48,490 bases of DNA from Lambdavirus PDP110P1, in the sequence record OZ035751.1; one strand, given 5' to 3'. This document shows positions 29,382 through 45,958 of this stretch, in pieces (positions within the stretch are counted from its first letter, which is position 1; the number at the start of each line of letters is the position of its first letter). Position numbers and translations under genes: made by a program. The notes beneath the pieces were generated by a model. The model saw only the letters and a list, made by a program, of their open reading frames with translations, did no database searches and was not told where the DNA came from.

Positions 29382-29736
29382 GATGACCTCCTTTGAAGTT
29401 TTAGTTAGCAATCACCAGTTAGTGGCTGGTGATCGGGTGTCAACTAGAGCCTTCAAAGATGCTCCGGGCATATTCCCCTTGCGGGTATTGTATTACGCCT
29501 CTCCACCCGACCTTTGTACGGATGTGACTATGCCAAATTGCAGGCATAAAAAAGCCGCAAAGCTATCGGGTGCGGATGACCGCTTTGAAGTTCTAGTGCG
29601 GTCAGTATGCGATAGCTCTGGCGGATTTGTCAAATCATGTGGTCTTTATCTTGCTGTAAGCCGCGCCATTCGGGATTTTCCCCAAATTTGGGGGAAACTA
29701 TCTGCGAAGTATTCACCTTTGACGGCAAGTTTCAGG

Positions 29737-38081: not shown

Positions 38082-38726
38082 TTAACCAAACGTCTCTTCA
38101 GGCCACTGGCTGGCGATAACTTTCCCCACAACGGAACAACTCTCATTGCATGGGATCATTGGGTACTGTGGGTTTAGTGGTTGTAAAAACACCTGACCGC
38201 TATCCCTGATCAGTTTCTTGAAGGTAAACTCATCACCCCCAAGTCTGGCTATGCAGAAATCACCTGGCTCAACAGCCTGCTCAGGGTCAACCAGAATTAA
38301 CATCCCGTCAGGAAAACTAGGTTTGGATCCTGTTGGCGCGGTCATGGAATTACCTTCAACCTCAAGCCAGAAAGCTTTTTCGCTGGCTTTTGTGGTCGTT
38401 GGGACCCATGCCTTTGCATCGCTGGCTGTGTAGCTTCCCACCTCCGAAAATGGCCCGGCCTGCACTGAAGAAAATAACGGGTATTCATATTGGCGAAATA
38501 CGGCGTCTGAATCCTCGCCAAACATTATTTTTGCCGGAGATACGCCGAGTGCCGCCCCAAGAACCAGCGCGTCATCCGCGCTAACCTTTCTTGTTCCTAA
38601 CTCGTAGTTCCCCAGGCGTGAAGGCGCAGCCCAGCCGCAAAGCTTGGCCAATTGAGCCTGGCTAAGTCCTTTAGCTTCTCTAAGGGACTTGATCCTTTCC
38701 CCGATAATTTCATGCATCGTTTTCAT
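38082..38726 (-). CDS. cI: CI-type repressor (HTH plus LexA-like S24 peptidase domain)
   Basis: 214 aa; N-terminal HTH (…[24 protein letters not shown]…), C-terminal autocleavage domain; divergent from cro across operators. Confidence 0.85.
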
Positions 38727-44618: not shown

Positions 44619-45127
44619 GAGAATTAAACCTCACCAAAGAGCAGCACGAGTGGCTGAATGGCTGGCTTGAACTGTGGGGGGCATGGGTTTATTCAGGTCG
44701 TCTGGAAAAGCGCATGAGCAGCGTAATAGCTAAGTTCATGGAGAGCGTAGAGCCGGGAAGAGTTATGACAAGGCCAATGTGTAATGATGATGATGGAATG
44801 TTGATTTCTCAGGTCGTCGATTCCGTCATGTACATTGACAAGAAAGCCTTTGGCATCCTCCTCAGCTACTACGCTCATGGTTCATCTAAGCGAGCAATTG
44901 CATCCTACTATCACGCGACTGCAAAGCCACGCAAGATGTGTGGACGTGGTGGCGAGGGATGGAGAAAACCTTCACTGGCAACCTGTAGAAACGAAATTGA
45001 CGACATCCTGAAAGCGTCGTTATTTGTTTTGTACCAACCAATGCAAAATGCTTTCAAAATGCGTAAACGTGTTGAGAAAGTTAAGCATGTTGCTGTTAAA
45101 AGCCTTGACATGCAATTAGCCATTTAG
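44609..45127 (+). CDS. late antiterminator Q-like protein (non-lambda type)
   Basis: 172 aa, unlike lambda Q; sits between ninI and the lysis genes; Cys-rich; a strong promoter lies in its 3' end followed by an early terminator. Confidence 0.5.
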
Positions 45128-45134
45128 CCATAAT
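45105..45134 (+). promoter_or_regulatory. late promoter pR'-like
   Basis: TTGACA-N18-CATAAT overlapping the end of the Q-like gene. Confidence 0.6.
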
Positions 45135-45146
45135 TAGAAGGTAAGC

Positions 45147-45190
45147 TGCCGTTAGTGACTCTTAAGTTGCAACGGTGGCTTTTTTATTTG
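45147..45190 (+). terminator. early late-operon terminator (tR'-like)
   Basis: hairpin GCCGTT…AACGGTGGC followed by TTTTTTATTT about 10-50 nt downstream of the predicted start. Confidence 0.5.
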
Positions 45191-45262
45191 CACAACAGGT
45201 AAGAGCATTGAACCCGCAGACCTGCGGAATTGGTGAAAGGTGCCGCGCAGTTCTCTTATCGT

Positions 45263-45392
45263 TGTGGTGAAGCTCAATGGCGAGCTAGCAGATAGGCGAT
45301 AGTGAAAATACTAGTCATGTAGCTGACCGCCGCGCGTACTGCAATCGGCAGCGCACCGATGGAAGCCGGTTCGATTCCGGCCGCCACAACCC
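45263..45392 (+). other. tRNA-like element (split or degenerate)
   Basis: 5' acceptor TGTGGTG plus D-arm GCTC…GAGC (45263-45286) and T-arm GCCGG-TTCGATT-CCGGC plus 3' acceptor CGCCACA (45365-45388), separated by ~55 nt of non-canonical sequence. Confidence 0.3.
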
Positions 45393-45634
45393 AAACTGAG
45401 CCGTAGCCACTGGCTATCCTGAATTCATCAGTGATAGTTATGCTGCGGCCTTCTACACATGACCTTCGTGAAAGCGGGTAGCAAGATGCTGCGCTAACAA
45501 CCTCATGCCGTTTTGCCCGTGCATATCGGTCACGAACAAATCTGATTACTAAACACAGTAGCCTGGATTTGTTCTATCAGTAATCGACCTTATTCCTAAT
45601 TAAATAGAGCAAATCCCCTTATTGGGGCTAAGAC

Positions 45635-45958
45635 ATGAAGATGCCAGAAAAACATGACCTGTTAGCCGCCATTCTCGCGGCAAAGGAACAAGGCATCGGG
45701 GCAATCCTTGCGTTTGCAATGGCGTACCTTCGCGGCAGATATAATGGCGGTGCGTTTACAAAAACAGTAATCGACGCAACGATGTGCGCCATTATCGCCT
45801 GGTTCATTCGTGACCTTCTCGACTTCGCCGGACTAAGTAGCAATCTCGCTTATATAACGAGCGTGTTCATCGGCTACATCGGTACTGACTCGATTGGTTC
45901 GCTTATCAAACGCTTCGCTGCTAAAAAAGCCGGAATAGAAGATGGTGGAAATCAATAA
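45635..45958 (+). CDS. S: holin S
   Basis: 107 aa [22 protein letters not shown]… with Met1-Lys2-Met3 dual start; recognised as lambda S. Confidence 0.9.

Follow-up and report, generated by a model that had tools for sequence, protein, structure and literature searches.

For a long time codon usage was given as the reason why bacteriophages carry transfer RNA (tRNA) genes; these genes are now being re-read as countermeasures against immunity that cleaves tRNAs. The species 1 RNA of phage T4 (rnaC), which is ~139 nucleotides (nt) long and encoded among tRNA genes, is matured together with the T4 tRNAs; to our knowledge, no function has been found for it since the 1970s. YrlA-type Y RNAs are non-coding RNAs that copy the tRNA elbow (D and T arms) and do not decode; enzymes that modify and process tRNAs also act on YrlA, its ends lie in the Ro-binding stem and its acceptor-like helix is capped. 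In transfer-messenger RNA (tmRNA) the ends form an acceptor helix beside the T arm and a large insertion takes the place of the anticodon arm. Lambdoid phages may carry true tRNA genes in the leader of the late operon, between the terminator tR' and the holin gene: tRNA-Asn and tRNA-Thr stand in this interval in Sf6 and in many P22-like phages, and phage L has tRNA genes in the late-operon leader slot as well (PMC8022706). Here we analyse a tRNA-like element that occupies the same interval in Lambdavirus PDP110P1 (sequence record OZ035751.1; the whole 48,490-nt stretch that was analysed is called the window, and coordinates refer to it unless another locus is named).

The window element is a class-II tRNA body in which the anticodon stem-loop has been swapped for a 47-nt structured insertion (Table 1). 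It is very probably a functional structured RNA, and its membership in a family of tRNA-derived structured RNAs without earlier annotation is well supported by comparative evidence. The best explanation overall, and in our judgement a fairly probable one, is that the family encodes a processed, trans-acting tRNA mimic that would act as a dimer.

A tRNA body with a long arm at the anticodon position

The ends of the element pair (45263-45269 with 45382-45388) in a helix that grows to 9 base pairs (bp). At the anticodon position a 3-4-bp stem leads through an internal loop to a ~9-bp stem and a 20-nt loop, and there is no 7-nt anticodon loop with U33. Across the family the GG of the D arm and the UUCGA of the T loop are invariant, and the acceptor/T coaxial stack and T loop, features read by RNase P, are present in the element. 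The family deviates from tRNA in an invariant A at position 8 (GUG-AA-GCUC), a 6-nt D loop, an acceptor helix of at most 9 pairs and a CCA that is not conserved.

A sequence-only reading of this DNA had listed the motifs TGTGGTG (45263-45269), GCTC (45272-45275) with GAGC (45282-45285), ATCGG-CAGCGCA-CCGAT (45344-45360), GCCGG-TTCGATT-CCGGC (45365-45381) and CGCCACA (45382-45388), all of which lie at these positions. The acceptor strands that it matched do pair, in a helix longer than the one it named (9 bp, 45261-45269 with 45382-45390). What it called an anticodon-like hairpin (ATCGG-CAGCGCA-CCGAT) is the long variable arm of the class-II body, and the ~55 nt of extra sequence that it noticed are present, not as stray sequence but as the structured long arm in the anticodon-arm position (45288-45342). 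Its remark that some lambdoid phages carry tRNA genes at this position agrees with the tRNA-Asn and tRNA-Thr genes of Sf6.

At default settings ARAGORN calls no tRNA at the element or in 27 related loci, and no tmRNA at the element. Rfam 15 returns no match in 45100-45650 at gathering thresholds, the tRNA model included; at E ≤ 10 there is again no tRNA match in this interval, the sole signal being a T-arm-driven tmRNA match of 11 bits, for which the gathering score is 47. A covariance-model search had been proposed as a check on the RNA; it indeed finds no family, yet this shows only that the RNA is absent from Rfam, not that it is unreal. Once 45292-45338 are exchanged for a 7-nt loop, ARAGORN at default settings calls a 92-nt class-II tRNA, so the body of the element is tRNA-like by an independent criterion. 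Relaxed and intron-aware ARAGORN runs, also proposed as a check, gave only an implausible tRNA-Lys (45223-45391, with a 77-nt intron) and reverse-strand pseudo-calls. An intron-containing tRNA was rejected because no anticodon loop is left after removal of the arm and the tRNA-Lys register ignores the covarying helices. A protein-coding explanation was rejected as well, because no open reading frame (ORF) of more than 41 amino acids overlaps the element and the substitutions are compensatory.

Two further candidates concern the internal loop of the long arm. By eye, AAUAG//GCGCGUAA gave no convincing match to a K-turn, a sarcin-ricin motif or an 11-nt receptor, and a pairing of the variable-arm loop (CAGCGCA) with the GCGCG internal loop was discarded because the variants show no covariation.

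Table 1 Coordinates of the tRNA-like element, its parts and its neighbours in the window
Feature	Position	Strand	Evidence or remark
Whole tRNA-like RNA as modelled	45261..45393	+	134 nt with C45260; covariance model R1, 157.6 bits
Acceptor helix, 5' strand GUUGUGGUG	45261..45269	+	pairs with CGCCACAAC at 45382-45390
D arm, A-GCUC / AAUGGC / GAGC-U	45271..45286	+	equivalents of G18 and G19 invariant; A-U pair added by RNAalifold
Long arm at the anticodon-arm position	45288..45342	+	helices 3 and 4 of the covariation alignment
Outer stem of long arm	45288-45291/45339-45342	+	
Internal loop of long arm, AUA(G) // GCGCGUA		+	conserved
Inner stem of long arm, ~9 bp	45295-45302/45323-45331	+	
Apical loop, UGAAAAU-ACUAGU-CAUGUAG, 20 nt	45303..45322	+	self-complementary hexamer at 45310-45315
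Long variable arm, AUCGG-CAGCGCA-CCGAU	45344..45360	+	compensatory variants in relatives
T arm, GCCGG-UUCGAUU-CCGGC, canonical T loop	45365..45381	+	helix 7 of the alignment
Q-type late antiterminator gene, 172 amino acids	44609..45127	+	ORF; identical region is antitermination protein Q in the annotations of HK75 and Sf6
Late promoter pR' (TTGACA, 18-nt spacer, CATAAT)	45105..45134	+	11 of 12 consensus matches; annotated as pR' in HK75 and Sf6
Leader terminator tR'	45144..45186	+	'terminator' annotation of HK75/Sf6 transferred via alignment A1
CACAAC, upstream copy of the 3' acceptor strand	45191..45196	+	read from the sequence
Upstream hairpin module, closed by GGUAAGAG/CUCUUAUC	45198..45260	+	fold prediction
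Holin gene S, first of the downstream late operon	45635..45958	+	ORF; annotated as holin in HK75, Sf6 and CUS-3

Covariation supports the fold

The fold was assessed in two alignments, A4 (MAFFT, 58 members) and A5 (70 sequences, 61 of them distinct, with independently ascertained members added). In A4 the proposed structure is paired in 96.1% of cells, against at most 49% in slid controls; in A5 the figure is 96.5% across the 61 distinct sequences, against 30-44% with the partners slid. Both-sided changes occur at 22 of 37 pairs in A5, compared with 13.6 ± 1.5 in column shuffles, none of 500 of which reaches 22, and covariation scores 0.360 compared with 0.144. With RNAalifold the proposed helices are recovered and the apical loop stays unpaired.

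In A5 the support extends over the individual helices. The acceptor helix (helix 1) is 98.4% paired with both-sided changes at 6 of its 9 pairs, and the T arm (helix 7) is 99.3% paired with such changes at 3 of 5, its compensatory variants being GCAGG/CCUGU, GAUGG/CCAUC, GUUGG/CCAAC and GCAUG/CAUGC. The D arm, at 99% paired, is almost invariant. The two helices of the long arm (3 and 4) change on both sides at 9 of 11 pairs (GCAG/CUGC versus GGG/CCC, among others), while the variable arm takes the compensatory forms AUUGG/CCAAU, AUCAG/CUGAU and AUAGG/CCUAU in members that were found without using this arm as bait. Compensatory changes of this kind argue for purifying selection on the RNA fold. 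The impression of the sequence-only reading that the element is interrupted or degenerate has to be given up: the extra segment has been conserved, covariation of its helices extends over phage groups that are unrelated, and the loop motif is kept by paired changes. That reading had left the choice between a tRNA pseudogene, a tRNA with an insertion and a tRNA-like structured RNA, of which the last is retained and the other two are dropped.

Single-sequence folding gives the window element an energy no better than chance (z = -1.30 and -0.80). Folded alone, L010, a member from the leader of an N-like gene, forms a cloverleaf with a long arm at z = -3.96.

A palindromic apical loop

The apical loop follows the consensus UGAAnAU-NCNNGN-nnAnnUAr (20 nt) across the family. 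Its centre takes seven forms, ACUAGU (in the window), UCUAGA, UCGCGA, UCUGGA, GCUAGC, UCCGGA and ACCGGU, and the hexamer is self-complementary in all 30 distinct loops, compared with only 0-3 of about 28 for the other 14 registers. In A5 the palindrome (helix 5) is 100% paired and covaries at 2 of 3 pairs; the outer pair is AU in 32, UA in 26 and GC in 3 cases and the central pair UA in 46, GC in 11, CG in 2 and UG in 2. UCUGGA is self-complementary as RNA only, through G.U pairs, and is no palindrome as DNA. Predicted self-duplex energies range from -3.6 to -8.7 kcal/mol.

The hexamer cannot pair with itself within one molecule, and the intramolecular partners considered (CUAG with the invariant GCUAG past the D arm; CGCG with the GCGCG internal loop) do not fit all seven hexamers, which argues for a loop-loop contact between two copies of the RNA. 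Judging from this pattern, the apical loops probably join two copies by a 6-bp kissing interaction into a homodimer. The apical 7 nt might be taken for an anticodon loop (UUCUAGA, giving CUA with U33 and R37), but this was rejected, because the implied anticodon shifts among close relatives (CUA, CGC, CCG, CUG) and the arm is far too long.

Distribution of the family

The window element is also present in HK75, PDP110P2, vB_EcoP-611R6 and PhiR5_2. Taken by itself, the 143-nt core shows 94% identity to its counterpart in the unrelated Skatevirus group (Skate, seszw, CECAV_048), 81% to that in ST1UNAM and 73% to that in the P22-like phage BIS08P22; the family passes between unrelated phage backbones as a cassette. 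Each locus has one copy of the element, and its boundaries are consistent. When IMG/VR was scanned for an exact pattern set in the variable and T arms, at least 120 loci were found, with 74 distinct versions among the matches listed; a second scan of IMG/VR anchored in the D arm added further members with different variable and T arms, and a metagenome scan gave 47 more matches.

Among complete Escherichia coli genomes 175 of 5,426 (about 3%) carry the element, in all cases on the chromosome. PGAP has no annotation under nearly all of these 175 copies, a 'hypothetical protein' coding sequence overlapping a few of them. Plasmids matched in 3 of 72,556 cases. A wider range in the genome-collection scan consisted mostly of chance matches, five loci of Enterobacteriaceae type being real: among GTDB species representatives these are in Klebsiella pneumoniae, Enterobacter intestinihominis, Superficieibacter electus, an Enterobacteriaceae bacterium and a metagenome-assembled genome labelled Cellvibrionaceae, in which the copy is essentially of the HK75 type. 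Matches in Pantoea and Acinetobacter phages were left out of the account of host range. Within this sample the family is confined to phages and prophages of Enterobacteriaceae. Our literature searches found no description of this RNA, and the paper on genome reduction of seszw does not mention it.

Genomic settings

Four settings were seen, and in every leader setting the element lies on the strand of the downstream gene. In the late leader (a) it stands past Q, pR' and tR' and ahead of the holin gene, as in the window, in HK75 and in the UCUGGA subtype, the last often with an HNH endonuclease gene upstream. In the N leader (b) it lies 21-23 nt upstream of an N-like antiterminator gene and downstream of cI, and in a further group (c) it precedes assorted early genes without assigned function. 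In the Skatevirus group (d) the tail genes on either side are on the other strand, matches to sigma-70-like promoters lie upstream of the element, and tRNA-Ile or tRNA-Met and then a terminator-like hairpin with a U run come after it. This last setting favours a free-standing RNA product.

Because the window element is downstream of tR', the RNA is expected to be made only from Q-antiterminated late transcripts. More generally, the late-leader and N-leader promoters are silent or terminated in a lysogen, so lytic-only expression is expected; by analogy with lambda biology, expression should be restricted to the lytic phase. A simple terminator scan did not detect tR' at 45144..45186, which Table 1 gives from annotation.

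HNH homing-endonuclease genes adjoin the element in several loci (e.g. L017 5021-5506; L007 2090-2590). They recall SegB within the tRNA/rnaC cluster of T4 and may explain the movement of the cassette. Elsewhere in the window, ARAGORN calls a tRNA-Ala (cgc) at 38446-38528 on the minus strand, a call that is nearly sure to be false, as it lies wholly inside the ORF of a 214-amino-acid cI-type repressor (38082-38726, minus strand). Among curated RNA families the window matches just one, Rfam sRNA-Xcc1 (RF02221), a full-length match at 29423-29512 on the minus strand with 65.4 bits for a gathering score of 53.

A link to the N leader of lambda

Two N-leader members, L010 and L077, connect the family with the hairpin in the N leader of lambda. 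They are identical to lambda through boxA, boxB and GCAUUCAAAGCAGAAGGCUUUGGGGUGUG and again from CACACCACCAAAGCUAACUGACAGGAGAAUCCAGAUG into N (identical flanks boxA, boxB, GCUUUGGGGUGUG ... CACACCACCAAAGCUAACUGACAGGAG), and their tRNA-like core stands where lambda has an unrelated segment of ~94 nt (leaders compared: lambda, L178 425-622, minus strand, and L010 7868-8062). The same base stem of 16-17 bp is predicted in the lambda and L010/L077 RNAs, and the acceptor helix of the element, GGUGUGGUG/CACCACACC, has its equivalent in lambda GGUGUGUG/CACACACC. The ~94-nt top of the lambda hairpin differs in having neither T nor D arm and cannot be aligned with the tRNA-like core, and the window copy lies in the late leader, not in an N leader. 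The lambda segment holds CGAUUCCGG, of which 9 nt are common with the T arm, and GAAGCAUUGGC (cf. GAAGCUCAAUGGC); its fold is not tRNA-like.

An RNase III site was reportedly placed in the N-leader stem of lambda by Kameyama 1991 and Wilson 2002. The base stem of lambda type offers a processing route for the N-leader members, and is also the chief support for an action of the element in cis, which is weighed below. Translation of lambda N is repressed from nutL (PMC5725501), and the effect of RNase III on the N mRNA is positive (PMC9032294).

The upstream module and exchangeable cassettes

The upstream hairpin module of the window occurs without the tRNA-like core in CUS-3, E212, D10 and LPST49, where it precedes other cassettes, and has a different interior in Skate. 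CUS-3, Huey and IME10 share the module, a 5' UGUGGUGAA and a 3' CCGCCACAACCC with the family and have a different interior of ~215 nt. The Salmonella phage D10, a Skatevirus (L230 700-870), has a module of the window type and a GUUGUGGU...GCCACAGC stem around an AT-rich interior of ~75 nt without a T arm. From these comparisons, the acceptor-like stem appears to behave as a common platform for exchangeable RNA cassettes.

The CUS-3-type RNA, a second candidate structured RNA (~230 nt; L003 762-990, L179 401-634, L180 401-616), has the same 5' UGUGGUGAA and 3' CCACCACA ends, its centre being variable. With conserved ends it is found again in Aeromonas phage 62AhydR11PP and in Hafnia phage Meifeng, in the latter upstream of tRNA-Arg, tRNA-Thr and the holin gene. 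It has a T-like arm with compensatory changes (GUCGG/CCGAC, GCCGG/CCGGC, GCUGG/CCAGC); it gave no tRNA or tmRNA call, and homology of the family to this cassette was rejected, as model R1 gives no match.

Instead of joining in the acceptor helix, GUUGUG (45261-45266) could pair with CACAAC (45191-45196), an alternative that is predicted in the CUS-3 fold and in the Skate centroid. The 3' strand of the terminal helix is copied upstream as CACAAC in the window (cf. 45385-45390) and as CCAAAG in N-leader members (flanks of L007, L010 and L020). Such a copy may act as a switch in folding or processing, or may be a remnant of the insertion of a cassette.

Inside the module, pairings among CCGCAG/CUGCGG/CCGCGCAG compete with one another, and the 3' strand of the module, GUUCUCUUA, is similar to boxA. 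A conserved 5' leader, GUGCUCUUA(U) or GUGCUCUUUCC (GUUCUCUUAU at 45250-45259 of the window; L005 2509-2520), is boxA-like (rrn UGCUCUUUA, lambda CGCUCUUA); the window copy GUUCUCUUAU is predicted to be paired inside the upstream hairpin. PhiR5_2 carries two tRNA-like elements: 170 nt downstream of the family member lies another, diverged one (L008 1880-1994; R1 17.7 bits), made up of CGCGUGGUGAA..., a hairpin like a D arm that contains GG, a hairpin resembling a variable arm and, at the 3' end, CACCAUGCG; this match recurs in at least 6 IMG/VR loci.

Comparison with known RNAs

The late-leader tRNA genes of Sf6, phage 21 and phage L (tRNA-Asn, tRNA-Thr, tRNA-Leu) resemble the element in the slot between tR' and the holin gene, in the acceptor/D/T architecture and presumably in the processing enzymes. 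They differ in that the element has a palindrome-tipped 47-nt arm for the anticodon stem-loop, A8 instead of U8, an acceptor of at most 9 bp and no conserved CCA, and is detected neither by ARAGORN nor by the Rfam tRNA model.

The closest architectural precedent is T4 species 1 RNA. Like the element it has a canonical T arm (CCGGG-UUCGAAU-CCCGG) that is preceded by an additional hairpin and adjoins a terminal helix made by the two ends, and it has a long arm for the anticodon arm; unlike the element it has no clear D arm and its terminal helix is weak. Homology was rejected, since R1 gives no match at E ≤ 10 to rnaC (L129 1409-1547) and only the general architecture is alike; at the T4 locus tRNA-Thr and tRNA-Ser alone score, at 16-19 bits. 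The very stable fold that we predict for rnaC (L129 1409-1547, minus strand; z = -4.57) comprises the terminal helix, the long arm, a 10-bp hairpin and the canonical T arm. Between its arms lies an unpaired UUUUAAAA palindrome.

The topology of tmRNA is similar to that of the element, which differs by having no tag reading frame, no pseudoknots and no G3.U70 (the pair is U3-A70), by possessing a true D stem and a variable arm, and by its size (~130 nt versus ~360). YrlA shares with the element the tRNA elbow and the lack of a decoding role and is set apart by its permuted topology, whereas the ends of the element form the acceptor helix; Rfam gave no YrlA match for the element, and no rsr/Ro gene was seen in the contexts sampled. 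For the apical loop the parallel is the kissing loop of the dimerization initiation site (DIS) of human immunodeficiency virus type 1 (HIV-1), a 6-nt self-complementary loop that varies in sequence by lineage yet remains palindromic, as among the HIV-1 subtypes. ROOL and GOLLD are phage-associated RNAs that assemble into homo-oligomers by intermolecular contacts (PMC12286853). The HIV-1 DIS and the homo-oligomeric RNAs OLE, ROOL and GOLLD are no tRNA mimics, the latter three are far larger, and the dimer proposed here is derived from covariation.

Proposed function and its alternatives

We propose that host tRNA-processing enzymes would excise the RNA from the leader transcript, RNase P acting at the acceptor and, in members that sit in a lambda-type N-leader stem, RNase III making the cut. 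The product would be a stable RNA of ~130-150 nt present in lytic growth only. Two molecules would join by 6-bp kissing of their palindromic loops into a particle with two-fold symmetry and a tRNA-like head at each end. The tRNA elbow and the coaxial stack of acceptor and T helices are formed by the parts that the family keeps (acceptor helix, D arm with its GG, variable arm and T arm). The RNA cannot decode, since it lacks an anticodon loop and its arm exceeds by ~20 bp what the ribosome can take, and for this reason a role as a tRNA mimic in trans is proposed: the RNA may bind a host protein that recognises the tRNA elbow, acceptor or variable arm. The likeliest role of such a mimic would be to titrate or misdirect a tRNA-directed host factor, for example a tRNA-cleaving defence nuclease; an anti-defence job is now assigned to many phage tRNAs in the same slots. 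A decoy for a tRNA-binding host factor is our leading guess. The step from the fold to a mimic or decoy acting in trans, rather than a processing signal in cis only, is the weakest of the explanation, and on the sequence evidence we put it forward as tentative and somewhat doubtful.

Several points weigh against this explanation. With A in place of U8 and a short D loop, the tertiary fold may depart from that of tRNA. A 3'-CCA is encoded in some subfamilies only (as ACCA behind a 9-bp stem in members from N leaders and as C-CCA behind 8 bp in the window) and is missing in Skate (ACUUAA) and UCUGGA-type (CAUUAC) members. Timing would be early in N-leader members and late in the window, which suits a general-purpose role but also leader processing in cis, and no conserved protein partner is found near the element in the contexts sampled. 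The palindromes come from few lineages, the independent double changes probably numbering about five or six, not 30. Expression, processing and dimerisation are all predictions from sequence.

The element may instead serve as 'tRNA punctuation', its fold recruiting RNase P or RNase III to the operon leader and the released RNA being a by-product; the cut would part the leader (nut RNA-antitermination complex or tR' region) from the message and so control the translation or stability of the N or lysis-gene message. This would account for a position in leaders on the strand of the downstream gene, often 21-45 nt from the gene start, for the replacement of the top of the lambda N-leader hairpin in L010 and L077 and for the true tRNA genes that fill the same late-leader slot in Sf6 and phage L, and it has a model in lambda, where RNase III cleavage relieves N-mediated translational repression (PMC5725501, PMC9032294). 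It leaves aside the Skatevirus element, which is in its own transcription unit with only a tRNA following and no message to process, and the window element, which lies 240 nt from the holin start; moreover, a cleavage signal needs no conserved long arm, internal loop, variable arm or palindrome kept by paired changes. We consider punctuation unlikely as the whole explanation. An aminoacylated tRNA-like or tmRNA-like RNA, matured with CCA, charged by a synthetase of the Ser, Leu or Ala type that does not depend on the anticodon, and acting on ribosomes or EF-Tu or donating its amino acid, would suit the class-II body with its long variable arm, a feature used by seryl-tRNA synthetase (SerRS), the ACCA or C-CCA directly after the acceptor helix in some members, the tmRNA topology and the weak 11-bit tmRNA match, the only Rfam signal. 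Against this stand a CCA that is not conserved across subfamilies, U3-A70 rather than G3.U70, the lack of a conserved ORF or resume codon and of an ARAGORN tmRNA call, a tmRNA score far under the gathering score of 47 and an arm too long for the ribosomal A or P site, which together make charging quite improbable.

We hold a feature at the level of DNA to be very improbable; here the acceptor strands would be recombination 'boundary sequences' for cassette swaps, and the palindrome would be bound or cut by a dimeric protein that binds DNA, for example a homing endonuclease. Cassettes as different as the tRNA-like element, those of the CUS-3 and D10 types and the top of the lambda N-leader hairpin sit between the same GUUGUGGU...GCCACAAC strands, 'boundary sequences' were marked here by the annotators of CUS-3, and HNH endonuclease genes are adjacent in some loci. 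Protein-binding palindromes, however, conserve bases and do not covary, UCUGGA is not palindromic in DNA, covariation through six helices is meaningless at the DNA level, and the exchange of cassettes accounts for movement but not for a conserved fold. That the locus is a decaying tRNA gene, a pseudogene or an insertion-disrupted tRNA without a function of its own, is scarcely credible: tRNA finders make no call, relatives have intact tRNA genes at the same site and the single-sequence fold energy is unremarkable, but the supposed insertion is conserved, covariation of its helices spans several host genera and phages of lambdoid, P22-like and Skatevirus type, the element is present once per locus with consistent limits, and the compensatory changes imply purifying selection on the RNA fold.

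The dimeric tRNA mimic can be set in a broader and more speculative scheme, in which this family, the CUS-3 and D10 types and possibly the lambda top are interchangeable 'tRNA-ended' cassettes, the shared acceptor-like stem would be the processing platform and the present family would be a homodimeric decoy that traps or misdirects an oligomeric tRNA-targeting immune nuclease or another host factor that binds tRNA, its two heads lying, on a rough estimate from helix lengths, ~130-150 Å apart. We regard this combination as improbable.

Biological significance

Codon supply cannot explain a family that has kept all the protein-visible parts of a tRNA but the anticodon and has a conserved arm with the signature of dimerisation; it must act through mimicry, as a scaffold or as a signal for processing. 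The family occupies the best-studied regulatory regions of phages, the lambda-type N leader and the pR'-tR'-S interval, and is missed by ARAGORN, Rfam 15 and PGAP alike; covariance model R1 would permit its annotation and submission to Rfam. The system is tractable, HK75 growing on E. coli K-12 and loop mutants being obvious in design. The family could illuminate the role of tRNA-like stable RNAs such as T4 species 1 RNA, and a homodimeric decoy, if true, would be an RNA-only anti-defence device and provide a functional model for that RNA.

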